Positions 31,790 through 56,169 of a stretch of DNA of 64,000 nucleotides are shown here, one piece after another. The notes under the pieces were generated by a model, which was not told the DNA's origin, ran no database searches, and saw nothing but the letters and a program-made list of their open reading frames with translations. Each line of letters starts with the position of its first letter. The stretch's first letter is position 1. Source of the stretch: an uncultured Candidatus Saccharibacteria bacterium (lineage in GTDB: Bacteria > Patescibacteriota > Minisyncoccia > Phycocordibacterales > UBA9973); assembly GCA_964532495.1 (NCBI GenBank), contig CAZHJZ010000001.1:44644-108643 (forward strand), in the 5' to 3' direction. A program made the position numbers and the translations under genes.

Positions 31790-32563
31790 TTATGAGGTCT
31801 TTTTTAATTCCAAGCACATAAACATCGGAAACTCCTTTCTCGCCTTATCCTCTGCTTTTTGTCTTGGTCCTGCCTGAGAAGCTTTGTGGGAAATCCATTC
31901 TTCTAGACGAGTCACGGCGAAACCATTCTTACTGAACAATTTGAAGTAAAACTGGAGCGGACGGTGGAATGAAATTGTTTTCTCGGTATCCTTTTTGCCT
32001 GGGTGCATTTCAATTGAAATAGTCTTCTCTGACATATATGAATCCATACGGCGATACTGCACGCCTTTCTTTTCATCAAATCCCCAATCGCTTGCTTGCG
32101 GGATTCGGAATGCAGGATGGTTCAAAACCAAAATAATTTTTCCGTTTTCTTTCAACACTCGTGAAAGTTCTTTCATTACCTCTGGAAGGTTTTCAATATT
32201 TTGAAATGCCAAAACACAGACCACAATATCAACTGATGTATTCTTCAAAAATCCGAGCTTGTGAGCTGGGCTCACATGATACTCAATGCCTCGTGCACCG
32301 CTTTTTTTGACTGCAAATGCAATCAGTTCTTTGGAAATATCTGCGCCGATCGTCTCTGCGCCAGCTTCGCGTATCATGCGAGTGAAATATCCTTGTCCAC
32401 AGGCAAGATCAAGTACTGTCGCCTTTTTTACTTCGCCGAGAAGTCGAAGCAAGTTTGGGCGGATTACTTTTGCCTGGTATGAATCATCAGAATCAAGCAG
32501 CTTGTCGTACCATTCCGCTGCTTCTCCCCATGATGTATTTTTTACTGAATTCTTTTTTTCCAT
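31790..32563 (-). CDS. class I SAM-dependent methyltransferase
   Basis: VLDLACGQGYFTRMI is the SAM-binding motif I. 257 aa. Confidence 0.7.
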   Translation of the reverse strand: MEKKNSVKNTSWGEAAEWYDKLLDSDDSYQAKVIRPNLLRLLGEVKKATVLDLACGQGYFTRMIREAGAETIGADISKELIAFAVKKSGARGIEYHVSPAHKLGFLKNTSVDIVVCVLAFQNIENLPEVMKELSRVLKENGKIILVLNHPAFRIPQASDWGFDEKKGVQYRRMDSYMSEKTISIEMHPGKKDTEKTISFHRPLQFYFKLFSKNGFAVTRLEEWISHKASQAGPRQKAEDKARKEFPMFMCLELKKTS

Positions 32564-32575
32564 AGTAGTACGTAA

Positions 32576-33784
32576 TTATTCAAGCGGAACAACTGAGCGG
32601 TAACGCCAACCTTCAAAGAAGAGACTGATGAGTTTCTTCGGAGATAGTATTCCGGCGAAATAAACAAAGTCGATTACATGACGAAGCATGTATCCAAACA
32701 TTCCATAAATCTTAATGCCATGCCAGACAAAGACCCCCCATCCTTCACCCACGGGAATTGAAAATGCCACCGGCTTCGGCACGTATTCTTTTAGATTTTT
32801 CTTTTGCAAGACAGCGCCGATTGCGCGCGCAACATACACTCCGTCATAAATAGCTGTCTGAGCCAAGCCGCTGTATTGGGTTCCGGCAGCATCCCCCGCC
32901 ACGAACACATAATCAAATCCGACGGCGCGCATGTATTCATCCACGAGTACTCGCTTCTTTGGTGAAAACGTCAGTCCTTCTATCTTTTCAAAAAGCGCGT
33001 TCAACTTTGTTCCTGCAGTCCAGATAAGCGTCTTTGCTTTCATACTCATATCTTTCAAATATACTTGCTCTACTTCTTCTGAAACAAGCTGACGGTTAAG
33101 AAATACATTTACACCGAGTTTGCGGAGCCGCGCCAAAATTTTTGCAGATACTTTTGGATCGACAGCTGGCACGAGACGATTATTAGATTCAATAAGATCG
33201 ATAGTTACGAGTGACGGATCAACAGTGTAATGATCGGCAAGTTTCTTCATATAGGCAGTCAGATCGCCTGCAACTTCTACTCCTGATGGACCGCCGCCGA
33301 CAATGACAATATGAAAATGGGAAACTAACTCCGAATTGTCTGGGTGCGCATGGTTTTCGAACAAGAGGTGCAAATGCTTTTTAAGGTTAACTGCTTCCTT
33401 CACGGACTTGAATCCGAGCGCGAGGTCGGTCAAACCTGGAAGATTGAAATATGTTGTTTCGCTTCCAAGCGCGAGGACAATATAATCAAATTGATAGACA
33501 CTGCCCGACAAGCCAGTAACAGATTTGCCTTTTAGGTCTATGGCTGTTGCGCTATCAAGCACAATTCCTACTGATTTCGGAAGCATATCTGAAAGGGGCA
33601 CGCAGACTTCAATTGGAGAAGCTCCAGTGACAACTCGATACAGGGCAGGATAATATTCAAAATAAGACTTATTCGACATAAGCGTTACTTGTACATCTTT
33701 AAGCCCTAAATGTGACAACTGTCGGGCTGCCTCTATGCCAGCGAAACCGCCGCCGACAATAAGGACCTTTTTGGTTGGATTCAT
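32576..33784 (-). CDS. ndh: type II NADH dehydrogenase (NDH-2) / FAD-dependent pyridine nucleotide-disulfide oxidoreductase
   Basis: KVLIVGGGFAGIEAARQL and a second Rossmann segment IVIVGGGPSGVEVAGDL. 402 aa. Confidence 0.75.
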   Translation of the reverse strand: MNPTKKVLIVGGGFAGIEAARQLSHLGLKDVQVTLMSNKSYFEYYPALYRVVTGASPIEVCVPLSDMLPKSVGIVLDSATAIDLKGKSVTGLSGSVYQFDYIVLALGSETTYFNLPGLTDLALGFKSVKEAVNLKKHLHLLFENHAHPDNSELVSHFHIVIVGGGPSGVEVAGDLTAYMKKLADHYTVDPSLVTIDLIESNNRLVPAVDPKVSAKILARLRKLGVNVFLNRQLVSEEVEQVYLKDMSMKAKTLIWTAGTKLNALFEKIEGLTFSPKKRVLVDEYMRAVGFDYVFVAGDAAGTQYSGLAQTAIYDGVYVARAIGAVLQKKNLKEYVPKPVAFSIPVGEGWGVFVWHGIKIYGMFGYMLRHVIDFVYFAGILSPKKLISLFFEGWRYRSVVPLE

Positions 33785-33952
33785 GCAAATAAGTATACTA
33801 TATCTCCCTTTATAAGCCTATAAATCAAGCATATTTTGACATTTGTAAGATTTGGTGTCTTGCTGCGTCTCTACCTATGAAGCCAGCACATTTCGCTGTT
33901 TCAGACCGAAACCAACAAAAAACAATTTTTAACTAAACCCCCAATTTTTACT

Positions 33953-34126
33953 ATGGAATTCCTGCACATCCTTTTCGCCCACTTAGAAACATTCCGTAAT
34001 GTCGTAATGGCTATTCCGGAAAGAAAATTACTTCCATTCGCATTCTTTGCCCCAATTGTATTCTTCGGAATCGCTCTGGCATGGACATGCATAAAACAAC
34101 GTAACTCGAACAATGAACCCGCGTAA
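33953..34126 (+). CDS. possible 57-aa single-TM protein (unlisted small ORF)
   Basis: Manual translation gives MEFLHILFAHLETFRNVVMAIPERKLLPFAFFAPIVFFGIALAWTCIKQRNSNNEPA. It is followed by the hairpin AAACCtGAATC-caa-GATTCgGGTTT plus TTTTT at about 34148..34180. Confidence 0.3.
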   Translation: MEFLHILFAHLETFRNVVMAIPERKLLPFAFFAPIVFFGIALAWTCIKQRNSNNEPA

Positions 34127-34242
34127 CCAACAGCAAAAAAGAAATTTTGAAAACCTGAATCCAAGATTCGGGTTTTTCCTCTTTATATTTTTGCCAGCAT
34201 ACGATACACTGTAAGAAGTGAAGTTCCCTTCCGTCTATATAT

Positions 34243-34764
34243 ATGAGCGCACCTGATTTACAAAAAACATTCATGCACGCATACGACACGTACAATGATG
34301 CCATTTTTAGGTATTGCTTGTTTGAGACATCTAACCGCGAGGTAGCGCTTGACCTGACCCAGGAAACATTTATAAAGGTCTGGCAGTATCTCGAGGATGG
34401 CAAAGAAATCGAACACACCAAAGCATTCCTCTACCGTGTCGCAGGCAACCTCGTTATCGACTACCGCCGCAAGAAAAAAAGCACGTCGCTCGATGACATG
34501 ATGGAAGAAGGTTTCGATGTCGAGCATGATGAGCGCGAACGATTGATGGACGGCTTTGACTCCAAGAAACTCATGGGTCTCCTCGAACAAGTCGGAGATA
34601 CCTATCGAGACATTATCATCATGAGATTCATCGACGACCTGACGATCAAAGAAATAGCCACTGTTACCGGGGAAAGCGAAAACAACATATCTGTGCGCAT
34701 CCACCGCGGCACTGAGAAACTCCGGCAACTCTATCTCGAAGCAGAACAAGGTTCAGGAAAATAG
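34243..34764 (+). CDS. ECF-type RNA polymerase sigma factor
   Basis: Sigma-70 region 2 (LTQETFIKVWQYL...YRVAGNLVIDYRR) and region 4 (DIIIMRFIDDLTIKEIATVTGESENNISVRIHRG). 173 aa. Confidence 0.8.
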   Translation: MSAPDLQKTFMHAYDTYNDAIFRYCLFETSNREVALDLTQETFIKVWQYLEDGKEIEHTKAFLYRVAGNLVIDYRRKKKSTSLDDMMEEGFDVEHDERERLMDGFDSKKLMGLLEQVGDTYRDIIIMRFIDDLTIKEIATVTGESENNISVRIHRGTEKLRQLYLEAEQGSGK

Positions 34765-34780
34765 AAACACAAAACATATT

Positions 34781-35734
34781 ATGGAAGACATATTTACACA
34801 ACTGAAAAAAGCCCAACGAATTCAGATGACTGCTCAAGAGCGGGATCGTATTCGACAGACACTGATACAAGTATCGGCCGGTTCTTCAGCTGCAAATAGT
34901 GTCCGCTCACCGCAAACTTCTCCATATATGACCCCTTCACCATTTACCCTCTTTGGCACACTTACTAAGGCTGCGGCTTTCCTTATCGTCGGCTTCATCG
35001 CAGGAGGAGCCTCACTTTCTTTTGCCTCCCTTAATTCACTGCCTGGAGATCGACTTTACTCCATCAAAACAGGAGTAACCGAAAAGATAACTACTGCATT
35101 CGCGTTTAGCACTGAGTCGAAGACTCGTTCGAAAGCGGATCATGTTGCTACCCGTGTCAGTGAAATTGCTGCAATAAAGCAAAGTGGTGCTATTAATGAC
35201 GCTCGGGTTGCAAGCGCAGCTCAGGCATCATTTACTGAAACGTTTCAAGACTACACAACGGCACTTACTGAGCTCAAACACGAAGGCCGCGTTGCTCGTT
35301 CCCAAGAAATTGCTCTAGCTACGCTCACGCAATTAAACACTGTTGCCCCAGCTCCAGTTGCTATTCCCGCAATGTCGATGACAAAAATTGCCGTTACTGC
35401 CACACCCATGAATGCTACGATCGCTGAACAAGCAGCAGACACAAGAGCAAACACCGCACTTGATACGGCACTCTTGCAAGCGGTCGGAGAGATACAGATA
35501 CTTGCTGAACCAGAGCAGCCTTCTATTCCTACTGATACTTTAATTCAGCTATCTCCAGACACTCTTACCCAGCCAGCTGAAACTACAACAAAACAAGAAA
35601 CAACTATTCCTTCCGTAAAACCAGCACCCGCAACTGAAACAAATGCTTCAGTAATTTCTGTGCCGGCAACAGAAACTGCTGCCCCTACAAAGCAGCCAGA
35701 ACAAACAAACGAACCTCTTACGAAAATTAGATAG
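34781..35734 (+). CDS. DUF5667-like membrane-anchored protein (putative anti-sigma partner)
   Basis: A TM helix followed by LPGDRLYSIKTGVTEKI, which matches the PGDxLYxIK motif of DUF5667. The C-terminus is T/P/A-rich and low-complexity. It sits immediately downstream of the ECF sigma gene. Confidence 0.55.
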   Translation: MEDIFTQLKKAQRIQMTAQERDRIRQTLIQVSAGSSAANSVRSPQTSPYMTPSPFTLFGTLTKAAAFLIVGFIAGGASLSFASLNSLPGDRLYSIKTGVTEKITTAFAFSTESKTRSKADHVATRVSEIAAIKQSGAINDARVASAAQASFTETFQDYTTALTELKHEGRVARSQEIALATLTQLNTVAPAPVAIPAMSMTKIAVTATPMNATIAEQAADTRANTALDTALLQAVGEIQILAEPEQPSIPTDTLIQLSPDTLTQPAETTTKQETTIPSVKPAPATETNASVISVPATETAAPTKQPEQTNEPLTKIR

Positions 35735-35744
35735 ATCCTTTATT

Positions 35745-37208
35745 TCAGGAGGAAGATTCCGCTCGTTCATTTTCAAGAAGAGCGGTTTTTCTATTTCCCG
35801 TTCTCAGGAATAATATAGAAAGCAGGATCGTAAATACCATAGCACCTAGGCCTATATATATTAGATATGCATTCCCCGAAGCCTGCTTTTTTGTTTCTTT
35901 TGCGTGCCCATCTGAGTTAGGAATACTACTGGTGACAGAAACTGTCTCTGTTACTGGTATTGATGTACGGGATGTCGGAGTGAGTGTTTTTATGGATGTA
36001 TTTTTTTTCTCAGCAATGATTGTTTTTGCTTTTTCCATAGATATACCAGAAGGATCGATAAGCAGCGTTTCAGTACTTGAATCTGAAAACTTAGATATCG
36101 ACGGAGGTATGATTATTTTTGCTTTTGGAAGAACAATCAGATGGGCTGGGAATACATAGGCTAATTCTTTTTGATCTAGCCTCCACCCCAGCAAGTCTAC
36201 TTCTTGATTGCCAGTATTTGAAATCTCAATAGAACCATCAGATGATACTGCAGTGATAAGCATGGAACTAGCCAATACTTTGATAATTTTGCGTGCAGTT
36301 GCTTCGGGCTTGGTTTGTCCTGGGTACCTATAATATTCAAGATAGAGTACATACTCGCCCGGATATGCATACGTGTACGAAAATTCATTTTTATCCTGAC
36401 GTATGATCGAGCCTCCGTCACCAAAGCTCCATAGAAAGTTGCCAGTAAATAATTCCTCCCCACTGTTTCCTGTTGCTTTAGAAGAAAAAAGCGCCGGAAC
36501 CCCAACAGTAAATTTGGAAGGCGTAATAATTTTTACTTCATATGGTACTGATTTAACCTTCACTACTCCTGATTTTGAAGCTGTTATCGGTGAACTCGGA
36601 GGGCCCGAAGCTTCGACACTAGAGTCCTGAGTATCAGCGGAACCCGAGTCATCGACTGGTTCAGCTGTATCGGATTCTGTGGATGTAAACTGATTTTGAT
36701 AACCTGGCGTCGGAATTGTCGGAACAAACAAATCATTATCATTTCTTGAAAGCGTGTTTCCATCTCCGCTAGCGCCCATTGAACTTGAATAAATCATAGT
36801 ATCAATAACTGTGCCGCTGCTGTTCACCATAGTCAAAGTTCCTGATGAATTGTTGAGCGACATGACAGTATCAATAACCGTACCCGTGTAGTTTGGATGA
36901 TCAGATAGGTATACTGATGCATTGCCGGTAAGAATGGCATACCCGCCGGGCTCTATTGAGAGTGTTCCCTGTCCGCCATTTCCAGGAGGGGTATTGAGCG
37001 TATGGCTTGAACTATCTGTAAATTTCCATCCAACGAGAGAGACCGATGTTGCCCCAGTATTATAAAGTTCTACCCATTCATGATCGGTGTCTGAGAGATC
37101 TTTTACGTCATAGAGGACTTCGTTGATGATGATAGAAGGTGCGGCGCGGGCGAAGCCCGCGCCGCACAAGCACACACATACAAAAATACCCAAGATTATT
37201 TTTTTCAT
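35745..37208 (-). CDS. lamin-tail-domain (LTD) protein, secreted with C-terminal TM anchor
   Basis: Signal peptide, two LTD motifs (IIINEVLYD...HEWVELYNTG and ITAVSSDGSIEISNTGNQEVDLLGWRL), an Asp/Ser-rich linker, and a C-terminal hydrophobic anchor with a basic tail. Confidence 0.65.
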   Translation of the reverse strand: MKKIILGIFVCVCLCGAGFARAAPSIIINEVLYDVKDLSDTDHEWVELYNTGATSVSLVGWKFTDSSSHTLNTPPGNGGQGTLSIEPGGYAILTGNASVYLSDHPNYTGTVIDTVMSLNNSSGTLTMVNSSGTVIDTMIYSSSMGASGDGNTLSRNDNDLFVPTIPTPGYQNQFTSTESDTAEPVDDSGSADTQDSSVEASGPPSSPITASKSGVVKVKSVPYEVKIITPSKFTVGVPALFSSKATGNSGEELFTGNFLWSFGDGGSIIRQDKNEFSYTYAYPGEYVLYLEYYRYPGQTKPEATARKIIKVLASSMLITAVSSDGSIEISNTGNQEVDLLGWRLDQKELAYVFPAHLIVLPKAKIIIPPSISKFSDSSTETLLIDPSGISMEKAKTIIAEKKNTSIKTLTPTSRTSIPVTETVSVTSSIPNSDGHAKETKKQASGNAYLIYIGLGAMVFTILLSILFLRTGNRKTALLENERAESSS

Positions 37209-37237
37209 AACCTCGAGTATAAATGCTGCGCCTGAAA

Positions 37238-40200
37238 TTATTCTAAAATCTGTTTCAATAAATCTTCAGGAACTTCTTTTGTTTTTTTACCTGCAGGTAT
37301 CTTGGTACCATGCTGAACATCTTCTTTTGTTGCTTCCAATATCTTTTCTTTTTCCAGCCGCTCCGCTTCTTCTTTTTGTTCTATTTCTTGTTCAGCCTTG
37401 ATTCGCGCCTCTTCTTCCCGTTTCTTCGCATTCAGAAGTTCTTGCGCTTCCACTTCCTTACGGCGCAGTTCTTCTTTCAATTCTTCTTCTTGCCGCTTTG
37501 CTTTCAAACGCTCTTCTTCCTGCTTTGCCTGAAGTTCTGCGAGTTCGCGCTTTCTGGCTTCGTCGATTTCCATAAGCCGTTTCTTCTCAGCTTCAACTTC
37601 AGCTAAAGCTTTGATACGGGCTTCTTCTTGTTCAGCCAATCTCTTTTTCTCTGCTTCTACTTCGCGCTCCATTTTTTCTTTCAGTTCCTGAAGCTTTCGC
37701 TCTTCTTCTTTTTGCTTCGCAATAAGAGCTTGCTTCATTTCTTCATCTTTCCGCTGTTTCTCTTCAAGCTCGCGCTTTTCTTGTTCTTGTTTTTGCTTTT
37801 CTTTTTCCAGCCGCTCCGCTTCTTCTTTTTCTTTTTCCGCCTGCAATCGAGCTTCAGATTCAAGTTTCTCTAGAGCGGCCTTTTTTGCGGCATCGGCGTC
37901 GGTGAGCGCATCCTGAGGAGGCAGTATAGTAGAGCCTGTATTCTGAGCTTGCGGCTGCGGTGGAATATTTATCGTGATATGCACATCTGGAGATGGTTGT
38001 GGTGTTTCCGGAGGCTTCGCTTCGCCCATGGCCAAAGAAATGGCATCTTTGAGCATATTTTGGCGTTCTGGCTGAGCTTCTTTAGTAGGAGTTATGAATT
38101 GCGAATTTGTTTTATTCTTAAGGCTATCGAGCGAAAGTCCTGCTTTCTGAGGTTCCGGAGCAGCATTATTTTCTTGAGCCTGTTCTTGTGAAGCAACAGG
38201 ACGTTGGGGCTGAGAACTTCTCATGACACCACCTAAAGCGTCTTTCAACAGACTCTGTAATGCTCCAGTATCAGGCATCTTGCGCTCTTTACGTGCAATA
38301 GGCGCTCGTACTGCCCTCGGTTGCGGCAAAGACACATCAGTTGACGAAGAACCTGTTGTGCGAGATGGTGCGCCAGCAGGCTGCGGTCGAGGAGCTTGCG
38401 GCGGCACATCTCGAATATCCGCTCTAATCATTCCTTGCGGAGGCATAGTCGGATCGGGTCTGCTATTTGAAACGCGCGGAGGCATTGTAGGCGCAGGACG
38501 AGGAGCTTGAGGTGCCATCGGTCGCGGTGATGGAGATGGTGAAGAAACAGCGGCTGGTGTAGACACTGGCTCAGTTGTAGCTCGAGGAGTTGCGGCAGGC
38601 TGAGTAGCTGGTGCTGGGCGAGGAGTGAATGATGAAGGCGTAGGCGTTCCAGGTCGCGGAGTATATGCAGGACGTGGCGTGTATGCGGGTCGATCATTTC
38701 GAGGCGGAGCTGCTGAGCGAGTTTCTTCCTTAAATTCAATACCCAGACTTGCGAGTGCGTTGTATGAAATATTATCCTTTCGTTCTTTTGGCGGACGGAA
38801 TCCAGCTCCCGCTTCTATTTCACCGTTTTTAATCTTGAAGAGACATTCTTTACAGTAAATTGGACGGCCTTCTTCGGGCTCAAAAGGAACATAAATGGAT
38901 TTGCCGCAGTTTGAACATGTCGCTTTGAATTTTCCTTCTGTTTCTTCTCCATCAGGTCGCGTCTGTCCAGGCACGGTAGAACTCCATTTCTGAATTTCAG
39001 CTTCAACTTCGCTTCGTCGGCGGGTAAAGTTATTTCGCGAAGTCTCAATAACACTATTACGAATATCATCAGATGTCTGCACATTTACTGGCGGAAGCGT
39101 TTTAGCGGAAAACGGACGCGAAGTAACACCGTCCACCATGAGCTTGTTATAGATATGATAGTTTGGCAGGTTGACGAAATCTTCAACAGTAAATTCTGGT
39201 TCAAATTCTTTTTCGAGAGCATCGGCATCATCGGCGCCGACACGGAAAATAATCATCGTACCAACGTTACCGAACACGGCGTCTTTCACTGTTTTTGAAT
39301 CAGCAGTTTCGAGCTGTGCGATGTATTGGTGAGCGATGATCAAGCACAAACGGTATTTACGCGCTTCAGAAAGAATTGAAGCAAACGAGTCAGTAACAAA
39401 GTTTTGGAATTCGTCCACATACAAGTAAAAGTCTTCACGCTGGTTTTCAGGAATACGAACACGCTCCATGGCAGAAAGCTGGAGCTTGGTGATCAACATA
39501 CCTCCAAGGAGCGCAGAGTTGTCTTCACCGATACGTCCCTTTGACACGTTCACCAAGAAGATCTTCTTGTTGTTCATGATATCAAAGATGTTGATCGTTG
39601 ATCGTGTTTGTCCAACCACGTTACGCACAATGTTTGACGACAAAAATTGTCCGACTTTGTTTTGAATCGGAGCGATAGCTTCGTTACGGAATTGGTCACG
39701 CCATGCTTCGTATTCGTGCACCCAAAAGGCTTTCACCACTGGGTCTTTCAAATTGTTGATGATGTACTGGCGGTAGTCTTTGTCCACCAACATACGAGGA
39801 ATACCCAACAGCGTTGTGTCGGGCGTATCGAGCAACGCCAAGATGGTGTTGTTCAAGATGTATTCCATTCGAGATGACCAGGCATTGGCCCAGATTTTGG
39901 TGAAGATTCCCATCAAACCGGATGCAACCAAGTGCTTGTATCTTGGATCGTCGAGCTGCAAAACGTTAAATCCGATGTTGTGATCAGTGTCAGCCGGGTT
40001 AAAGTAAATAACATCCCCTGCTCGTTCTGGCGGGATTGTCTCCAATATTTTCTCAACCAGTTCTCCGTGCGGGTCGACAACACAGACACCTTCACCTTGG
40101 TGAATGTTCTGGATGATCATGTTTTCAAGCATTACGGATTTACCGGTACCGGATTTACCGAGCACATACATGTGCTGGCGTCGGTCTTTTCGCTTGATGC

Positions 40201-40273
40201 CGAAAATTTGATCGGTACCTCGGAAGTTCGTCTTCGCGAAGTACGTTATATCTTTGTTGAATGGAAAATCCAT
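37238..40273 (-). CDS. VirD4/TraG/TraD-like (T4CP-like) P-loop ATPase fused to a zinc ribbon, a Pro-rich linker and a long E/K coiled-coil tail
   Basis: Walker A YVLGKSGTGKSV, Walker B FYLYVDEFQNF, and IIAHQYIAQL. A C4 ribbon CSNCGKSIYVPFEPEEGRPIYCKEC follows at about residue 470, then RPAYTPRPAYTPRPGTP... and an ERLEKEK-type coiled coil of about 330 aa. 1011 aa. Confidence 0.65.
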   Translation of the reverse strand: MDFPFNKDITYFAKTNFRGTDQIFGIKRKDRRQHMYVLGKSGTGKSVMLENMIIQNIHQGEGVCVVDPHGELVEKILETIPPERAGDVIYFNPADTDHNIGFNVLQLDDPRYKHLVASGLMGIFTKIWANAWSSRMEYILNNTILALLDTPDTTLLGIPRMLVDKDYRQYIINNLKDPVVKAFWVHEYEAWRDQFRNEAIAPIQNKVGQFLSSNIVRNVVGQTRSTINIFDIMNNKKIFLVNVSKGRIGEDNSALLGGMLITKLQLSAMERVRIPENQREDFYLYVDEFQNFVTDSFASILSEARKYRLCLIIAHQYIAQLETADSKTVKDAVFGNVGTMIIFRVGADDADALEKEFEPEFTVEDFVNLPNYHIYNKLMVDGVTSRPFSAKTLPPVNVQTSDDIRNSVIETSRNNFTRRRSEVEAEIQKWSSTVPGQTRPDGEETEGKFKATCSNCGKSIYVPFEPEEGRPIYCKECLFKIKNGEIEAGAGFRPPKERKDNISYNALASLGIEFKEETRSAAPPRNDRPAYTPRPAYTPRPGTPTPSSFTPRPAPATQPAATPRATTEPVSTPAAVSSPSPSPRPMAPQAPRPAPTMPPRVSNSRPDPTMPPQGMIRADIRDVPPQAPRPQPAGAPSRTTGSSSTDVSLPQPRAVRAPIARKERKMPDTGALQSLLKDALGGVMRSSQPQRPVASQEQAQENNAAPEPQKAGLSLDSLKNKTNSQFITPTKEAQPERQNMLKDAISLAMGEAKPPETPQPSPDVHITINIPPQPQAQNTGSTILPPQDALTDADAAKKAALEKLESEARLQAEKEKEEAERLEKEKQKQEQEKRELEEKQRKDEEMKQALIAKQKEEERKLQELKEKMEREVEAEKKRLAEQEEARIKALAEVEAEKKRLMEIDEARKRELAELQAKQEEERLKAKRQEEELKEELRRKEVEAQELLNAKKREEEARIKAEQEIEQKEEAERLEKEKILEATKEDVQHGTKIPAGKKTKEVPEDLLKQILE

Positions 40274-40415
40274 CTGGTTGGTATTTTAAGCAACAGCCCA
40301 ATAGCGGGCTAAGCTCCCACTAGTATATCAAGTAATAAAAAAATAAACAAAAAATGCTTTGTTTACAAGGTTTGACTAAATAGAACGGTCACGGTACATT
40401 GAAGAAAAACTACGC

Positions 40416-40757
40416 ATGGGACACCACGATAAGCCACTTCATTGGAAAATTCATATACCATACCTTTTATCAAACAGCCCTACGCCTCCGTACGATTCCT
40501 CCAAATTCCCCTTTAGCTACTTTGAGCGGCCAATTAACGCAACATATAAAAGCCTCGTACAAAAAATTGCCACTGTTTTTAGTGAATCTGTTATCCATGG
40601 AATGAAAAGCGGCTCATTTGCGCACTGCATCATTGATGACAAACACATCACGCTTGAAGCTCAAAGCACTGAGTTCATGCCTGTACAAATCGAAAACAAA
40701 GAAAACCTTATCAAAGAAATAGTAGCTCAGGCTAAAACCGCAATAAACATAAAGTAA
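40416..40757 (+). CDS. hypothetical small protein on the opposite strand, between the ATPase gene and the Cys-rich operon
   Basis: 113-aa ORF with a strong intrinsic terminator right after its stop and a TTGACT-N17-TACATT promoter at about 40366..40394. Confidence 0.4.
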   Translation: MGHHDKPLHWKIHIPYLLSNSPTPPYDSSKFPFSYFERPINATYKSLVQKIATVFSESVIHGMKSGSFAHCIIDDKHITLEAQSTEFMPVQIENKENLIKEIVAQAKTAINIK

Positions 40758-40759
40758 CC

Positions 40760-40791
40760 ATCCTCCGGAACCCACCCGGTGGATTTTTTTA
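40760..40791 (+). terminator. rho-independent terminator after 40416..40757 (also abuts the stop of the last Cys-rich gene)
   Basis: ATCCtCCGG-aacccac-CCGGTGGAT followed by TTTTTTT. Confidence 0.6.
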
Positions 40792-42444
40792 TACGAATGC
40801 TTGGTTGTAACAGGTGTCGCAATATAAAATTTCTGGACGGTCAGGAGAGTAAGATGTTTGAATGGGAGTTGAGCAATTGGAGCAGGTACGACTAAACAAC
40901 ATGTTTGGGCCGCGCGCCGCGAAGCGGCGCGCGTGCCTGCAATCAGGACAAAGATGCGGCAACGGGATTTCCAACCGCTTATAAAACGAAAACTCATTCG
41001 GAATGATGCGATAATTCTTGGTGCAAGATTCGCAAGCAAAAATTTCCTTTGCTAAATCACTGTCGGTTTCTCCGATAGCATCAGGCATTTCCGACCACTG
41101 CTTCGTTTCTTTTCCATAAGTACCGCGCGGCGTATCTTCCCACTTAAAACCTTGGGCAAGCGCTTCTTCTTTAGAAAGAGGAAACTGTTCCTGAGTCGCT
41201 GATTCGTTGTATCCAAAACACGAAATCTGAGCTGGGAAAAACTGGCCGTATTCCCCCGTCTCTTTCATTTGCGCAACGATCTCACCCCTCAATTGCTCAT
41301 ATGTTTCTTTATCATACTGCTTATTCAAAATACAATAATCTTTTTTACGTAAACCTGCACAACCAAAAATGTAGTTTGAATTGAAACAATTCATTGCGTA
41401 CTCGGCAAACGTGGAACTCCAAACCTGGGCGCAGCAAACATAGTTGGCAACGTCGATGCCAGCGTTAATTGAATTGTAGATCATGCTGGCATTTCGTCCG
41501 GCAGTAGAAACGTCCATGCAATCCTTGGCATTTCGCCACACATGTTCGGCATAGGAGCAATCCTCTGCATCATAACAGTGAAAACATTCCTTGCAGTTCT
41601 TTGCATGCTTCATGTAGTTGCCTGAAGAATTCATCGTATTTACAATCTCTGCATACTTTCTCGGCTGAGTCAGTAAAAATTCATTGAAAGCAGCACGAAA
41701 GGCCTCCAATCCAGAGGCGGTATCAAGGCGCATCTCCTGCACCTTTGCAAAATAATCTTCCTTCGAATACGCCTGATTAAAAATATAATATTGCTGCTGG
41801 CGTAAATTCACGCACCCCAAACAATCCGAGCAGCCCTTGCAGTCGATCAGAAAGGCGCTTTCGCGGCAATCATGGCAGCCTTTTGAATATTTCAATTTAT
41901 ATGAGTTGTAGCAATCGTCGCATTCGTAACAAAGCTCGCATTTGGAAGCGAACGATGTATCAATAACATCGCGGCATTCCTGGATCCAAAATGAATGAAT
42001 GGAATCTTCATTGTTCGAGCTTTCAATAATGAAGTAGCAATTTTTGTTGTCGGCGGAAATATTAATGTATTCGCTACCAGGACTGCGAACGTAAATCAAA
42101 GCAACCTTTGGTATCACTGTATACAATTCTTCAAACTGCTCCATAAATGGTCGTGAAGGGTCGTATTCCCGCGCATACTCTATGCCATCCCAATCATCAG
42201 CAAACCAACATTCGTAACACCAAACCGTATACGGCTTATTCGGTGAATACATGGAAACAACATCCTTTTTGCATTTGTCGCACGCGCGCTTGTAAAAAAC
42301 ACGCTCGTTGCGAAAACTGAGGCGCAACTGGGCACGGCAGATTGGACAGAGATTGGGAGGAATAACACCTATTTTTTCATAAAATGAAGTGTCATTCTCT
42401 GTCACTGTAAAGCTAGCGGTACATTTGTCGCAGGTTTTTTGCAT
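40789..42444 (-). CDS. cysteine-rich zinc-ribbon protein, array paralog 1 (last gene of the operon)
   Basis: 551 aa. N-terminal ribbon C-x2-C...FYEKIGVIPPNLCPICR, repeated C-x2-C clusters, the YYIFNQAYSKEDY motif, the C-terminal ribbon CESCTKNYRIIPNEFSFYKRLEIPLPHLCPDCRHARR, and the end ...YCDTCYNQAFV. Confidence 0.7.
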   Translation of the reverse strand: MQKTCDKCTASFTVTENDTSFYEKIGVIPPNLCPICRAQLRLSFRNERVFYKRACDKCKKDVVSMYSPNKPYTVWCYECWFADDWDGIEYAREYDPSRPFMEQFEELYTVIPKVALIYVRSPGSEYINISADNKNCYFIIESSNNEDSIHSFWIQECRDVIDTSFASKCELCYECDDCYNSYKLKYSKGCHDCRESAFLIDCKGCSDCLGCVNLRQQQYYIFNQAYSKEDYFAKVQEMRLDTASGLEAFRAAFNEFLLTQPRKYAEIVNTMNSSGNYMKHAKNCKECFHCYDAEDCSYAEHVWRNAKDCMDVSTAGRNASMIYNSINAGIDVANYVCCAQVWSSTFAEYAMNCFNSNYIFGCAGLRKKDYCILNKQYDKETYEQLRGEIVAQMKETGEYGQFFPAQISCFGYNESATQEQFPLSKEEALAQGFKWEDTPRGTYGKETKQWSEMPDAIGETDSDLAKEIFACESCTKNYRIIPNEFSFYKRLEIPLPHLCPDCRHARRFAARGPNMLFSRTCSNCSTPIQTSYSPDRPEILYCDTCYNQAFV

Positions 42445-42453
42445 GTATGAGTA

Positions 42454-44151
42454 TTATACTACTTCTTTTTGATAACAGTCTTCGCAATAAATCGGTCGCG
42501 GCTCCTTGTCGGTAAAGAACGTCTCAAAGGTATTTGCACACCGACTATCATGTCCGTGGGAATCTTGCCCACAATCACACTGACGAGAAACGAGATCATA
42601 CCCACCCCTCATATTTTGGCGCCTCATATGACGACAGAAGAAACATTCAGTTGGAATTGGGACTGCTAATCTTCGATAGAGCAAGAGCTCGTCAGGCAGA
42701 ATGCGGTAATTTCGCCCGCAGCTTTCGCAGGCCAAAATTTCTTTTAGAATTTCATCTGTAACATCATGTATAGAATTTGGAACTTGGTCTTGAGAAATAG
42801 TTTCCTTCCCTTTCGTCTGCTGAATTTCGTCTTGCCATCTATAACCTTGAGCCAATGCGTCTTCTCGATTGAACTGTAATTCCCAATTAGCTCGTGTTTC
42901 ATTTATGCCGAATGGCGAAAGAGAGGACGGGAAAAATTCTCCATACTCTCCACGAATTTTCATATCTTCAATTATTTTCTTTGAGAGTTCCTGATATTCC
43001 TCTTTTGAGTATCGCTTGTTCAAAATAACATACTCTCCTTTTTTTACACTTGTACAGCCAAGAATGTTATTGCATCCATGGCAGTCAAACGAATATGAAG
43101 CGAAGGTATTTTTCCAGCATTCAATTGTAGAGAGGCTTCTCGATGACTGATCTGGCGTAATGCACTCATATGCAAGCTCAGTTTCGCCGCCGACTTCGCA
43201 GTCATAACACATTTTGTATGTCACGCCATTATGTACATATTTTGAATCTTCTGAAAATGAGGCAAACGATGAAGACTTGGTATTTTTGCCGCGAATAATA
43301 TCTGAGCCAGTACACGCGACGCTGCTTTGCAGCTCAGCGAATTTCCGAGGATAGGGCGCAACCCATTCAGTAAATTCCTTTCGTGCTCGTTCATAGCCCG
43401 ATCGTGTATGGAGCTGATATGACTCTAAAATGTGCTGATATTCTTCTTTTGAATATTGCTGATTTTTGAAATAATATTTTTTGTTTCGCAGGCCGCTAGA
43501 CATAAAACAATCTTGCGAGCCGCGACAGTCATAGCAAAGAACACAATTGATGCATGATGTGCACCAATATACGCTTCTGCAGTTAGAAACTCCATTAGCG
43601 GCGACACCATCATACAGATATTGCGATTCCTCGGTAATAATCAATGTATCTGACATGTCTTTTCCCGCTGCGAGCGAAACTGAGTTAAATACATTTTCAA
43701 CTCTCCAAGCAATGAAAACCATAGCGCAGTTTTTTGCAAAAGCCACATCGTTCGTATAGAGACAGTTAATGCTTGCAATATCGTTGTCGTTTACGATTCC
43801 AAGTACTGGAGTCTTATGATTAAGCTCCACTACCTGTTCAATAAAAGAGCGCGTCGGATCATACTCAACGCCATAACTATACGGATCCCAATTATCGCTA
43901 TGAAAACATTTTGGACAAAGCACGGTAAAACCGCTATTCGGCGCATAGATGGAAATAAAATTCTTTTCGCAAAGCGAACACTGGCGCGAATAGAGGTTGA
44001 AATCATTTCTCCACGACAAACGCCGAATACGGCGGCACCGCGGACAAAGCGTCGGAGCTGGAACGTCAATCTTCTCATAAAAGCCTAAATCGTCAGCTTC
44101 GATTACGAAGGCAGTTGAGCAGTTTTTGCATTGTTTGGTTTCTGGGTTCAT
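42454..44151 (-). CDS. cysteine-rich zinc-ribbon protein, array paralog 2
   Basis: 565 aa with the same architecture. The C-terminus is ...YCEDCYQKEVV. There is a 9-nt gap to paralog 1. Confidence 0.7.
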   Translation of the reverse strand: MNPETKQCKNCSTAFVIEADDLGFYEKIDVPAPTLCPRCRRIRRLSWRNDFNLYSRQCSLCEKNFISIYAPNSGFTVLCPKCFHSDNWDPYSYGVEYDPTRSFIEQVVELNHKTPVLGIVNDNDIASINCLYTNDVAFAKNCAMVFIAWRVENVFNSVSLAAGKDMSDTLIITEESQYLYDGVAANGVSNCRSVYWCTSCINCVLCYDCRGSQDCFMSSGLRNKKYYFKNQQYSKEEYQHILESYQLHTRSGYERARKEFTEWVAPYPRKFAELQSSVACTGSDIIRGKNTKSSSFASFSEDSKYVHNGVTYKMCYDCEVGGETELAYECITPDQSSRSLSTIECWKNTFASYSFDCHGCNNILGCTSVKKGEYVILNKRYSKEEYQELSKKIIEDMKIRGEYGEFFPSSLSPFGINETRANWELQFNREDALAQGYRWQDEIQQTKGKETISQDQVPNSIHDVTDEILKEILACESCGRNYRILPDELLLYRRLAVPIPTECFFCRHMRRQNMRGGYDLVSRQCDCGQDSHGHDSRCANTFETFFTDKEPRPIYCEDCYQKEVV

Positions 44152-45906
44152 CTAGTTAGTTTCCTTTTGATAACAACTTTCACAATATACCATTTCTGGC
44201 CGTTCGGGAGCATACGAACTCTTGAACTGATTCGGGCAATCCCCAACATGGTCATGCAATCCTGCAAGATCGGGTCGCGCAGTGTCGGCTGAAGCGCGAC
44301 CCTTTTGACACATGCATTCACGCAGCCAAAGTTGCGGCGGATTAACAAACTTGAACCGATCAGTAAATCGACACATATGGCACTTTCTCGGGAGCGGCAA
44401 CTTCATGTTCTTATAAAATTGAAGCTCAAGTGGAATAATACGATATGCTTTACTACAATCAAGGCATTCAATAACTTCTTTCAATATTGAATCACCTACA
44501 TCTTTACTGTCATCTGGAAGGTCAGAAGCGGTGATTGTAGCCTTATACTCCGCTTGAACTGGCTCTCTCCATACAAAACCCAGCTCTTCTGCCTGGCTGG
44601 GCAGAAGAGGGTAAAAATCCTGAGCCATGCTTTCATTATAAGCATACGGTGAAAGTTCTGCAGGAAAAAATTCTCCGTATGTGTATGCTCTGCCAAGCTT
44701 ATCCATGTATGGCATTTCATTCATATGAGTAATTATCTTCTCGCGCAAAATTTCATATTCTTCCTTTGTATATTGCTTATTGAAAATACAGTATTGTTTT
44801 TTATAAAGGCCGACACAACCAAAACAATTAGTTACTCCATAAGAGAAAGCGCAGTACTCGACATCTCGCACGTCTCCCCAGCAGTTATAAGAAAACTTAA
44901 TATTGTAAGCGCCCAAACCGCATGTGACGCATTCATACATATTGTCGGCACGATCACCCCAAATTGTGTAATCGTATGCATTACTAGCTTTGTACTGCAT
45001 ATCCTGACAATAACGCAAATTCTCGCTTTGGCGGACTGAATACGAATCAGTAACATTCTTTGAGTCAAAGACGCGTTCGCCAGTAGAAGCTACAGTACGA
45101 AGCGTGTGATTATATTTTACTGGAAACTTCAGCCAGAAATCATGCGCTGTTTTTAACACGTCAGTTAGTACTGCATGAGAAGAAAGATTGTATTGTGCAA
45201 CCTTGCGATCATACTCTTCTTTGCTGTATGGCTCATTAAAAAAGTAGTTCGACTTCTTGGTTAAATTCACGCAGCCGAAGCAATTAGTGCAGCCGCGCAA
45301 GCCTTTTGAAAACCAGACATCAACACAGCTATCGCAATCGAGCGAATAGAAAGTGCGATAGCTTTTATCAGTCATGACAATTTCATAGCATAATTCATCT
45401 TCTGTTCCTTCATAGCTATCGAGCGTATCCTTCACATGATTCATCTTGCGCGCGTACGCGCAATTTTCCATATAATCACAGTTAAAACAAAGGTAGCAGT
45501 TTTTTGCTTCGCTTATTTCATTGCAGTACTCAGAATTCACCATGTTATATACAGAACGTGCAGCAAGGGGCGCTCGAGCAAGCAAGTCCTTGAATTGCTT
45601 AAAAAATGGTTTTGAGAAATCATAATCGACACCTGTGGCAAGCTTATCCCATTCATCGCCGTACCAAAATGCATTTTCATATGTGACAACAGAAGCTAGA
45701 GGAGAAAAGCCGGAAAAAATATCAGTTTGAGTATGCGAATCTTTGCGCCTAAAAAGTACTTTCTCGTTACGATATTGGAAGCGCCTAATCATTCGGCACT
45801 CAGGGCATAATGTTGGAGCAGGAACTTTCATTTTTTCATAAAAAGAAAAATCATCAGGCTCGATGTTGAAATCAGTTTTGCAGTTTTGGCAGTTTCTAGT
45901 TTCCAT
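44152..45906 (-). CDS. cysteine-rich zinc-ribbon protein, array paralog 3
   Basis: The ORF track extends to 45999, but the conserved start METRNCQNCKTDF lies at 45906, 5 nt after the paralog-4 stop. The stop of this gene abuts the paralog-2 ATG (TAGATG). Confidence 0.7.
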   Translation of the reverse strand: METRNCQNCKTDFNIEPDDFSFYEKMKVPAPTLCPECRMIRRFQYRNEKVLFRRKDSHTQTDIFSGFSPLASVVTYENAFWYGDEWDKLATGVDYDFSKPFFKQFKDLLARAPLAARSVYNMVNSEYCNEISEAKNCYLCFNCDYMENCAYARKMNHVKDTLDSYEGTEDELCYEIVMTDKSYRTFYSLDCDSCVDVWFSKGLRGCTNCFGCVNLTKKSNYFFNEPYSKEEYDRKVAQYNLSSHAVLTDVLKTAHDFWLKFPVKYNHTLRTVASTGERVFDSKNVTDSYSVRQSENLRYCQDMQYKASNAYDYTIWGDRADNMYECVTCGLGAYNIKFSYNCWGDVRDVEYCAFSYGVTNCFGCVGLYKKQYCIFNKQYTKEEYEILREKIITHMNEMPYMDKLGRAYTYGEFFPAELSPYAYNESMAQDFYPLLPSQAEELGFVWREPVQAEYKATITASDLPDDSKDVGDSILKEVIECLDCSKAYRIIPLELQFYKNMKLPLPRKCHMCRFTDRFKFVNPPQLWLRECMCQKGRASADTARPDLAGLHDHVGDCPNQFKSSYAPERPEMVYCESCYQKETN

Positions 45907-45911
45907 AATTA

Positions 45912-47669
45912 CTATAGTACTTCTTTCTGATAACATCCTTCGCAATAAATCTTCTCCACTCGCTCCGGTGCATAAGTTGTCTGAAACTCGTTCGCGCATG
46001 TGCCCGAGTGATCATGTGACTGAATGTCGCACATACAGGTACGCTGGTAGAGCTTCATCGGATTTCGCTGCTTGAGACGGTTATAGTGGCGACAGTTTGG
46101 ACAATAGACAGGCAATGGCACATTCATTTTATGATATAGATCAAATTCCTCAGACATGATTCGGAAAGCAGTTGTGCATTGTGAAATTTCACTTCCCTTG
46201 TTGCGGCATTCTATGATTTCTTTGGTAATTGAAGCGTCAGCTGTTTTGGAACCATCTGGAATCATTTCATTGGCAATCGAAATAGTGTAATTGCGTTCAT
46301 CCCGATCAAACCAAGTAAACCCTTGAGCCAGCGCGTCCTCTTTTGAAAGCGGAAAATATTCCTGTGCCACAGTTTCGTTATACGCAAACGGTGAAAGATT
46401 GTAAGGGAAAAATTCACCATACGTAAATGTTCTTCCTTTCGCATCGATATATGGCATTTCGTTCATATGAGCAATAATTTTCGGGATCAACGCCTCGTAT
46501 TCCTCTTTTGTATACTGCTTATTCAAAATACAATATTGCTTGCTTCGCAATCCGTGACAGCCAAAGAGATGGGATGAACCATGACAGTTGATCGAATACC
46601 GAACATCAAAACAATGATAGACTACGCCGGTAAAATACAGGTCTTGGGATTGAAGAGCAGAATCAAATGTATCGTACAATCGCTCGCCTTTTATACCTAC
46701 TCCTGGCCCTGAGTCATATGAATCCTTGATATCATATCCGCCCCATACCAAGTATTTGCCGTCTTCGCAGCCGATCGGCGTGCCGACGATATCAAACGAA
46801 TATTTTAGATTCTTCGAGTTCTCGATATTTTCGCCAGTACAATTGACCGACTTATACATATTTGCAAAACGATGAATCTGACTTTCATGGAACTTCTGTG
46901 CCTTTGCTTTGTATTCTTCTATAGTGGAATGAGAAGTGAGATCTATGGTACTTAAAAATTCCAGATACTGTTCGCGAGTATATTGTTCATTGAAAACACA
47001 ATAGCTTTTGCCGCGTAGGTTTGTACAGCCAAAGCAATTCTGACAGTTTACGCATGATTCCAGAAAATATGAATCAGCGCACTGTTTGCAGTTTTTGGAA
47101 TATTGAACTTTAAAATTATTATGCGAGTTTACAAGCTCGTAACAAAGTTCATTATGATTGGCAATGTACATTTCCGCAGATTGTTTGTTTTCCGTCACGC
47201 GGTTGCCGTACATAGTGTCTTCGTTACTATGAGAAGCAGAAAGCATGAAGCCGTTTTTATCCCCTTCGGCCACATTGCAGTACTCGCAGTTAACCATGTT
47301 AGTCACTGAAAGATTAATAAGCGGAATACGCTCATACAATTCTTTGAATTGCTGAAAAAAGGGTTTTGAGAAATCATAGTCCTTTCCATATTCAATCGGA
47401 TCCCATGAGTCGCCCCACCACGTGCGATCATCATAAACAGTATACGCAGTTCCCGGGCGATGAATAGAAACGATCTGTTCGCCCAATTTCCCTGGGGCAT
47501 TATTTTCGCGACTATAGAGCGTCCGCTCATTACGGAACATCATGCGTCGCTGAAATCGGCACATAGGGCAAAATGTCGGCGGCGGAACATTAATCTTGCC
47601 GTAAAAAGCAAAATCTTCCTCTACTATGAGAAATGATTTCTTGCAGTTTTGGCAGTTCCGGGTTTCCAT
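45912..47669 (-). CDS. cysteine-rich zinc-ribbon protein, array paralog 4
   Basis: The ORF track extends to 47795, but the conserved start METRNCQNCKKSF lies at 47669, 7 nt after the paralog-5 stop. Confidence 0.7.
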   Translation of the reverse strand: METRNCQNCKKSFLIVEEDFAFYGKINVPPPTFCPMCRFQRRMMFRNERTLYSRENNAPGKLGEQIVSIHRPGTAYTVYDDRTWWGDSWDPIEYGKDYDFSKPFFQQFKELYERIPLINLSVTNMVNCEYCNVAEGDKNGFMLSASHSNEDTMYGNRVTENKQSAEMYIANHNELCYELVNSHNNFKVQYSKNCKQCADSYFLESCVNCQNCFGCTNLRGKSYCVFNEQYTREQYLEFLSTIDLTSHSTIEEYKAKAQKFHESQIHRFANMYKSVNCTGENIENSKNLKYSFDIVGTPIGCEDGKYLVWGGYDIKDSYDSGPGVGIKGERLYDTFDSALQSQDLYFTGVVYHCFDVRYSINCHGSSHLFGCHGLRSKQYCILNKQYTKEEYEALIPKIIAHMNEMPYIDAKGRTFTYGEFFPYNLSPFAYNETVAQEYFPLSKEDALAQGFTWFDRDERNYTISIANEMIPDGSKTADASITKEIIECRNKGSEISQCTTAFRIMSEEFDLYHKMNVPLPVYCPNCRHYNRLKQRNPMKLYQRTCMCDIQSHDHSGTCANEFQTTYAPERVEKIYCEGCYQKEVL

Positions 47670-47676
47670 AGGGTTA

Positions 47677-49392: not shown

Positions 49393-49394
49393 GA

Positions 49395-51137: not shown

Positions 51138-51139
51138 AC

Positions 51140-55576: not shown

Positions 55577-55649
55577 TGCTTGGGACCAGGGTCGAACTGG
55601 TGACCTATCCCTCTTCAGGGGAGCGCTCTACCAACTGAGCTACCCAAGC
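55577..55649 (-). tRNA. tRNA-Phe (anticodon GAA)
   Basis: Minus strand reads GCTTGGGTAGCTCAGTTGGTAGAGCGCTCCCCTGAAGAGGGATAGGTCACCAGTTCGACCCTGGTCCCAAGCA. It folds as a cloverleaf with a 7-bp acceptor stem, anticodon loop CTGAAGA, and T-loop TTCGACC. No CCA is encoded. Confidence 0.85.
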
Positions 55650-56097: not shown

Positions 56098-56169
56098 TGT
56101 CCCCACCAGGAATCGAACCTGGATCAGCTCGTTAGGAGTGAGCCGTTCTATCCATTAAACTACAGGGAC
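56098..56169 (-). tRNA. tRNA-Arg (anticodon CCT)
   Basis: Minus strand reads GTCCCTGTAGTTTAATGGATAGAACGGCTCACTCCTAACGAGCTGATCCAGGTTCGATTCCTGGTGGGGACA. The anticodon loop is CTCCTAA. The sequence closely resembles canonical bacterial tRNA-Arg(CCU). Confidence 0.85.

Follow-up and report, generated by a model that had tools for sequence, protein, structure and literature searches.

Type IV coupling proteins (T4CPs) such as TrwB, TraD and DotL combine a TrwB-like nucleotide-binding domain and an all-alpha domain with an N-terminal transmembrane domain, and are linked to type IV secretion system (T4SS) and relaxase genes. TraD and DotL also carry a variable C-terminal domain with an acidic end that binds partners, namely TraM in the case of TraD and IcmSW in the case of the acidic DotL tail (PMC7434980). 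A 2025 survey counted 5713 VirD4-like genes in 2918 Patescibacteria genomes, approximately two per genome and mostly away from secretion systems, with just 148 near virB4, and suggested that the orphan genes have perhaps been co-opted for another role (PMC12102498). Here we describe a gene of this kind, referred to below as the long ATPase, in a 64,000 nucleotide stretch of DNA (the window) from an uncultured Candidatus Saccharibacteria bacterium (assembly GCA_964532495.1, contig CAZHJZ010000001.1, positions 44,644 to 108,643). It is a single open reading frame (ORF) of 1011 codons, as the original prediction from the sequence had stated, and the C-terminal 560 residues of its product probably form a tether rather than a folded domain, bearing a zinc finger, four short motifs (three of them predicted to be helical) and a conserved end peptide.

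The long ATPase shares the nucleotide-binding and all-alpha domains with the T4CPs, and a variable C-terminal tail with TraD and DotL. In contrast to them it lacks an N-terminal transmembrane domain, has a zinc finger fused to it and a far longer tail that includes a putative single-helix spacer, and belongs to the chromosomal core, where it has a paralog without a tail. Its neighbours are not T4SS or relaxase genes; instead it is syntenic with genes for a lamin-tail domain (LTD) protein, a sigma factor and a DUF5667 protein. Its scores against the NCBIfam TraD/VirD4 models also lie far below the cutoffs (33–45 bits against cutoffs of 250–650), the top scores being 44.6 bits for SXT_TraD (cutoff 366) and 33.3 bits for the CD1115 family (cutoff 250). 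The protein has the fold of a coupling-protein motor and would work like one, but given the missing membrane domain, the missing T4SS linkage and the sub-cutoff scores, we file it as a T4CP-like orphan ATPase and not as a coupling protein.

Pfam assigned the N-terminal 445 residues to TrwB_AAD_bind (PF10412, residues 29–346, 58.6 bits against a cutoff of 20.5), TraG-D_C and DUF87, with a Walker A motif (GKSGTGKS) at residue 39 and a Walker B motif (VDEFQN) at residue 286. An AlphaFold2 model of the 1011-residue protein, built with a 99-sequence family alignment, was confident over this core and helical over approximately residues 110–235, the all-alpha domain. A sequence search of solved structures yielded only a P-loop match to TrwB, and a fold search with Foldseek was therefore needed; its top match for the core was TrwB (1gl6/1e9s; E approximately 3e-12, TM-score to target approximately 0.6), with further matches to DotL, HerA, Cag-beta and VirB4, and also to 6sz9. 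No transmembrane segment was found in the long ATPase or in its short paralog (maximum 19-residue Kyte-Doolittle hydropathy approximately 1.0; 1.03 in the long ATPase), and the position of Walker A, already at residue 39, leaves no room for an N-terminal membrane domain. The gene is the long member of a pair of anchor-less TrwB/VirD4-like P-loop ATPases of the HerA/FtsK superfamily. The short member is 46% identical to it over residues 8–417 and ends about 50 residues past the core, bearing out the expectation that the tail would be absent from this paralog. A role as a defence system was considered and rejected, PADLOC having returned only weak HerA/mad8 P-loop similarity and no support.

The core is followed by a zinc finger that scored above cutoff with both zf_Tbcl_2 (PF23477, residues 449–478; 46.6 bits against 27) and the TIGR04272 'CxxC-x17-CxxC domain' model (48.5 bits against 36), and that AlphaFold2 modelled with a predicted local distance difference test (pLDDT) score of 84–93. 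Its cysteines are C453, C456, C474 and C477 (regular-expression match at residues 453–477); a fused C4 ribbon had been correctly anticipated, with the wrong spacing of x15 instead of x17. Small CxxC-x17-CxxC proteins of Methanosarcina have the same TIGR04272/PF23477 domain, and zinc binding has been demonstrated only for purified members from Methanosarcina mazei (PMC12704099). The finger of the long ATPase is accordingly of a type known to bind zinc and is predicted from its sequence to do so; it differs from the Methanosarcina proteins in being fused to a 445-residue motor and a 530-residue tail.

The tail after the finger comprises 534 residues. When 99 family members were aligned and mapped onto the 1011-residue query, five conserved islands were found along the tail (I1 to I4 and the end peptide), with two hypervariable spacers between them (Table 1). 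The nearly invariant peptide that ends the tail is KEVPEDVLRKVLE-COOH, with the family consensus K-E-[VI]-P-E-[DE]-[VIL]-L-[RK]-[KQ]-[VI]-L-E-COOH, in which P1002, E1003 and L1006 show conservation of 90% or more. It stands at the very C-terminus in nearly all of the 120 best homologs and in approximately 80 of 86 scanned sequences (85 fetched loci plus the window), and in those same loci it was found on no protein outside the ATPase family, so that no partner sharing the signal emerged. AlphaFold2 gave pLDDT values below 50 at residues 517–668, 684–733, 751–794 and 979–1000, by which the tail is predicted to be largely disordered, and placed short helices at I2 (670–684), I3 (715–718), I4 (735–748, pLDDT 67–76) and the end peptide (1003–1010). 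These conserved motifs and the terminal peptide are the most informative features of the tail, and were absent from the original prediction, which had described approximately 200 residues of P/S/T/Q-rich linker followed by an E/K-rich tail of approximately 330 residues. Both lengths need revision: the linker stretch covers about 270–310 residues, is not uniform and contains conserved islands, and the E/K-rich block is confined to residues 795–991, with a predicted helix at 795–979, or about 185–197 residues.

Distances between islands are nearly constant across relatives except for two. The I1–I2 interval varies from 30 to 177 residues (156 in the query), and the interval from I4 to the end peptide from 27 to 256, the maximum being that of the query, where it is made up of the P/Q-rich linker and the E/K block. 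Comparison of orthologs, which had been proposed as a check on whether tail length varies, gave total lengths of 192–534 residues with a median of 301, and the query tail is the longest in the set. Three relatives at species level share 98%, 97% and 95% identity with the query over the core, their full lengths being 999, 1027 and 892 residues; in the same three proteins the Pro-rich spacer is 51–56% identical with 61–83 gap columns, the E/K block 40% identical with 61–64 gap columns, and the end region 70–75% identical. As judged from these alignments, the two spacers evolve fast in length, by both insertion and deletion. Such an organisation has precedents in the C-terminal linker and peptide of FtsZ and the acidic tip of SSB, in which a fast-evolving, composition-constrained linker leads to a short conserved end peptide that recruits partners. 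The ATPase belongs to a different protein family, and its tail adds internal motifs, a zinc finger and a helical spacer.

We therefore considered the tail as an adjustable tether that presents docking motifs, by analogy with the extensions of TraD and DotL. The motor would assemble as a hexamer like its relatives, and each subunit would reach out with its end peptide and internal motifs and so bind at least one partner, much as the C-terminal extension of TraD engages TraM and that of DotL the IcmSW/DotN adaptors. The spacers would set reach and stiffness, their sequence being free to drift while composition and charge pattern persist; a stalk or spacer role had been suggested at the outset, and it agrees with the length variation of the Pro-rich segment and E/K block and with the predicted helix of 185 residues. 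Candidate partners would be the short paralog, the lamin-tail membrane protein encoded downstream and the Cys-rich zinc-finger proteins of the neighbourhood. Taken as a whole, this explanation seems to us narrowly probable.

The nature of the second spacer is central to it. Published criteria exist for telling single alpha-helices (SAHs) from coiled coils (PMC5812594), and we scored the E/K block after these criteria by a proxy of our own and not with the Waggawagga program. AlphaFold2 predicted one unbroken helix over residues 795–979 (pLDDT 75–87), which would measure approximately 28 nm at 1.5 Å per residue if fully helical. Residues E, K and R make up 59% of the block, LIVMFYW 17% (about one seam residue per 8 positions), Ala 12% and Leu 10%. 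Opposite-charge pairs at i,i+3/i+4 numbered 99, against 66.5 ± 6.1 in composition-matched shuffles (z = 5.3; reached by 0 of 2000), and alternating charge networks 72, against 39 ± 8.5 (z = 3.9), while hydrophobic seam networks at i,i+3/4,i+7/8 were at chance (3 against 3.4). Among 21 homologs whose E/K block reaches 100 residues or more, the salt-bridge excess recurred in 20 (z = 2.9–7.3) and an excess of hydrophobic networks in none, across blocks that are only approximately 40% identical and range from 107 to 238 residues. Since the charge pattern is kept in blocks so diverged, we read the E/K block as an ER/K-type single alpha-helix and hence a stiff spacer, its monomeric state and helicity being predicted. 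On this modelling, the second spacer has become an ER/K single alpha-helix in the clade of the query, stabilised by i,i+3/i+4 salt bridges rather than by a hydrophobic seam.

The known ER/K helices of myosin VI/X and INCENP have the same E/K/R-rich composition, the same excess of i,i+3/i+4 pairs and charge networks and the same lack of a seam, and serve as stiff spacers between functional elements (PMC5812594, PMC4183817), the role proposed here. The E/K block differs from them in lying in the tail of a bacterial ATPase, in an E+K+R content below that of textbook examples, in a length of approximately 185 residues, which is long for a single helix, and in a monomeric state that is a prediction.

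Two repeats lie within the spacers and bear on how these arose. The peptide EEAERLEKEK occurs twice (residues 817–826 and 968–977), and the repeated DNA block reported beneath it is real: it is an exact direct repeat of 35 nt at 37796–37830 and 37343–37377, identical at 37 of 38 positions when extended. Codon shuffling of the E/K block (1000 rounds) gave no repeat longer than 24 nt, and the repeat is thus no by-product of composition. It was not found in the three species-level relatives even with 6 substitutions allowed, which indicates a recent, lineage-specific copy event. A recent duplication of 453 nt as its source was tried and rejected, since self-comparison at an offset of 151 residues gave 35% identity over 37 residues. 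The Pro-rich spacer contains RPAYTPRPAYTPRP, two copies of RPAYTP at residues 528–541 (window 38651–38692). The peptide is tandemly duplicated as had been claimed, but the copies are identical at only 13 of 18 nucleotides, the five differences all being silent changes at third codon positions, so that no fresh slippage event is indicated. Tandem Repeats Finder, run on 37000–40400 as a repeat-finder check, reported trivial arrays only and neither of these repeats, because the RPAYTP copies have diverged too far at the nucleotide level and the copies of the 35-nt repeat lie apart.

One could argue that the Pro-rich stretch and the E/K block are low-complexity expansions without function, produced by slippage or duplication and tolerated between functional motifs. 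The extreme variation in length and sequence between proteins with 95–98% identical cores, the restriction of the E/K block to one subclade, most family members being without it, and the recent copy event private to the query lineage would all fit. However, 20 of 21 diverged blocks retain a charge pattern beyond that expected from composition, which argues for selection on helix stability; the frame stays open for 534 codons and ends in a conserved peptide; and a linker of at least 27 residues always separates I4 from the end peptide. We regard functionless expansion as rather unlikely.

Two observations weigh against the tether as drawn here. The helix of the end peptide was modelled with only moderate confidence (pLDDT approximately 55–60). 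Hydrophobic residues of the query block peak at a period of 3.56 residues, which 0 of 300 shuffles reach, and 72% of its 32 hydrophobic residues fall inside a 140-degree sector of the helical wheel at this period. Such a weak, non-conserved amphipathic stripe leaves possible room for a self-association seam in the query protein, and lends something to the proposal that the E/K block is a genuine coiled coil that dimerises, or that bundles the six tails of a hexamer into a stalk or oligomerisation device. A hexameric motor would keep six tails close, and the long AlphaFold2 helix is expected for a single helix and a coil alike. Nevertheless, the continuous heptad region originally described was not found: power at 3.5 residues is 0.04–0.06, no more than background (shuffle mean 0.14), and the block follows no one heptad register over its length, with a mean of 0.37 for the best local a/d occupancy. 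The 3.56-residue peak is not significant in the relatives tested, and the low hydrophobic content, the chance-level hydrophobic networks and the salt-bridge excess of the relatives point the same way, as does the precedent of E/K-rich 'coils' called by predictors that proved to be single helices, e.g. INCENP (PMC4571873). The coiled-coil or oligomerising block is therefore probably wrong, and we consider it distinctly unlikely.

More doubtful still is a regulatory arrangement in which the end peptide and internal helices fold back on the protein's own motor or finger as an autoinhibitory strap. The islands reach pLDDT values of 64–76 in the monomer model, above the surrounding linker, and among the fold matches is a coupling-protein ATPase regulated by a bound helical protein (Cag-beta/CagZ, 8dol). 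Set against this are the moderate confidence of the end helix and the stiff helix of 28 nm directly before the peptide, which would impede fold-back.

The docking tether presupposes that the ORF is intact, and an artificial fusion had been raised as a concern. A protein search returned at least 8000 homologs, of which the best 120 all have PF10412 followed by PF23477 and lengths of 665–981 residues; where named, they are Patescibacteria entries called 'CxxC-x17-CxxC domain-containing protein' or 'type IV secretion system DNA-binding domain-containing protein'. The recurrence of this architecture in independent Patescibacteria assemblies speaks against an assembly fusion, and the last 13 residues agree in frame with the conserved C-terminus of the family, so that the whole 534-codon tail is correctly read. 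Two contigs from an independent assembly of SRR12404947 equal the window at 32072..37372 and 40184..45850 with 0 mismatches. The first breaks off after exactly 30 nt of the 35-nt repeat, its terminal 30-mer occurring at 37343 and 37796. If this assembly was built with k = 31, as in the Logan pipeline, the stop lies at k-1, and would be due to a real repeat breaking the de Bruijn graph there. The second contig (L086), which spans the Cys-rich genes, runs 90 nt into the ATPase gene and ends at 40184; its terminal 30-mer is unique in the window. The 453-nt unit between the 35-nt copies is putatively traversed once. Neither the exact 1011-residue protein nor a version starting at M35 was found in a collection of 15 billion proteins that does contain the LTD and short-ATPase proteins flanking it on the same 200-kb NCBI contig; a different gene call or a source filter is a possible reason. 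That the ORF is an assembly or frameshift artefact joining an ATPase to unrelated low-complexity sequence is extremely improbable: the missing database entry and the breaks of the independent assembly at both gene ends are outweighed by the shared domain order, the in-frame terminal residues, the collinear tails of close relatives (L006, L009 and L007) and the mismatch-free contigs, one break of which the 35-nt repeat explains.

Table 1. Features of the long ATPase gene and its neighbourhood; positions are those of the window.
Feature	Position	Strand	Remarks
Long ATPase gene	37238..40273	-	one uninterrupted ORF, 1011 aa; TrwB/VirD4-like with zinc finger and long tail
P-loop motor core, aa 1–445	38939..40273	-	nucleotide-binding domain and all-alpha domain; Pfam PF10412, PF12696
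CxxC-x17-CxxC treble-clef zinc finger, aa 449–482	38828..38929	-	PF23477, TIGR04272; zinc binding predicted
Island I1, aa 503–515, L..LGIEF	38729..38767	-	L507, G511, I512 and E513 invariant in 99 sequences
Pro/Arg-rich hypervariable spacer, aa 518–667	38273..38722	-	P 26%, R 12%, net charge +14; holds RPAYTP x2
Island I2, aa 668–684, L..LLKDAL	38222..38272	-	moderately conserved; AlphaFold2 helix 670–684
Island I3, aa 712–721, SL..LK	38111..38140	-	S714 94% conserved; L715 and L718 invariant
Island I4, aa 729–748, K.A.......LKDAI	38030..38089	-	K731 93% and A733 96% conserved; L741 invariant
P/Q-rich variable linker, aa 749–794	37892..38029	-	10–17% identity to close relatives; pLDDT <50
E/K/R-rich predicted single long helix, aa 795–979	37337..37891	-	E 31%, K 18%, R 10%; contains the 35-nt repeat
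C-terminal peptide KEVPEDLLKQILE-COOH, aa 999–1011	37241..37279	-	short amphipathic acidic helix (predicted)
Lamin-tail (LTD) gene	35745..37208	-	29 nt downstream of ATPase; signal peptide, lamin-tail and PKD domains, C-terminal membrane anchor
ECF-type sigma-70 factor and DUF5667 membrane protein	34243-35734	+	divergent beside LTD gene; arrangement recurs in relatives
Eight tandem Cys-rich proteins, about 550–627 aa	40789..52789	-	between the two ATPase genes
Short paralog ATPase, 489 aa	53424..54893	-	same core, no finger, no tail

Relatives numbered 24301 at E <= 0.001 in a library-wide search, and end-peptide classes were counted among 149 listed representatives with sequences read. Class A, the EVPEDVLRKVLE type of the long-ATPase family, was present in 13, class B (...PG[QE]x[VI][KR][FL]) in 23 and class C (...F[ED]EP[IL][IL]) in 8. 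As distant relatives thus have other conserved end peptides, a variable tail plus a terminal peptide is a general design of the superfamily. Many distant relatives (among P0244–P0392) have an N-terminal extension of 300–460 residues before the ATPase core. DUF8128 is fused N-terminally in one class C example and encoded by a separate upstream gene in one class B example (loci L088 and L089), which speaks for a connection with DUF8128.

Conserved synteny was assessed in 80 species-representative genomes named Paceibacteria, Nomurabacteria, 'Saccharibacteria' or Patescibacteria. The gene order in the window and its relatives is Pyr_redox_2, extracytoplasmic function (ECF)-type sigma factor, DUF5667, LTD, long ATPase, 0–8 Cys-rich genes and short ATPase. 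An LTD gene lies directly downstream in 66 of the 73 loci with enough flank, and upstream, the short paralog is present within 6 kb in 37 of 58 loci and Cys-rich genes likewise in 37 of 58. No T4SS, virB4 or relaxase gene was found among the Pfam-annotated genes of the 64-kb window, in agreement with the survey of orphan VirD4-like genes (PMC12102498). The ATPase pair belongs to the chromosomal core of Paceibacteria-type Patescibacteria and is unlinked to a type IV secretion system.

The downstream protein (Pfam LTD match, 3.4e-25) is a probable operon partner of the long ATPase. At most of approximately 70 loci its C-terminal membrane helix is followed by a cytoplasmic tail of approximately 20–25 residues ending in [SR]-A-x-D-[MI]-x-I-[IV]-E-COOH. 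This end peptide is missing in the four genomes with a long E/K helix (the window, L006, L007 and L009), and in the window the protein ends in ...ALLENERAESSS; the four belong to one clade, and the coincidence hence counts as one event. Nothing in the literature was found to link 'lamin tail domain' with Patescibacteria.

Members of the Cys-rich array share 32–36% mutual similarity, and in other genomes 0–4 copies were counted in the 6 kb upstream. Of the more than 5500 homologs of the family, nearly all are annotated as hypothetical and a few as zinc-ribbon proteins, and no Pfam match exceeded threshold; the C-termini of three of four tested paralogs showed sub-threshold matches to PF23477, the model of the ATPase finger. 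AlphaFold2 modelled one Cys-rich neighbour confidently (pTM 0.84), and a fold search with it gave no PDB match below E = 1 and no functional clue. Three of the Cys-rich ORFs (45912–51173, minus strand), taken from their first GTG/TTG start, overlap their upstream neighbours by 25–120 nt, and their true starts probably lie further downstream.

A promoter and terminator scan of 35500–41000 gave counts equal to shuffle expectation and hence no usable call. Rfam showed no RNA element in or near the ATPase gene, its only matches in the window being two tRNA genes (55577–55649 and 56098–56169, minus strand). Otherwise the window consists of housekeeping genes (MreB, MreC, TGT, UvrB, MetK, LepA and MurJ). 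Located amid several ORFs without a Pfam match, a 535-residue protein at 15373–16980 (minus strand) has a zeta-toxin/AAA_33 kinase-like domain at residues 261–398.

The long-ATPase family is already present in databases as uncharacterised proteins; the motif grammar of its tail and the single-helix spacer are new descriptive points. For annotation, the E/K block is a lesson in that a bacterial E/K-rich segment which the eye would take for a coiled coil has the statistics of a single alpha-helix spacer. The tail alone would not surprise specialists in disordered proteins, and its value lies in the family context. At low confidence, and as speculation, we suggest that the two anchor-less ATPases, the lamin-tail protein and the Cys-rich array may constitute an undescribed chromosomal machine found across Patescibacteria, e.g. 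for DNA or protein transport across the envelope. If that were true, the ATPase tail would be a length-adjustable ruler docking the motor to membrane and cargo partners, and the E/K helix would represent a clade-specific change of reach coinciding with loss of the lamin-tail end peptide. The finger, the short motifs and the end peptide, carried on a variable tether, offer testable handles for finding the partners of such a machine.

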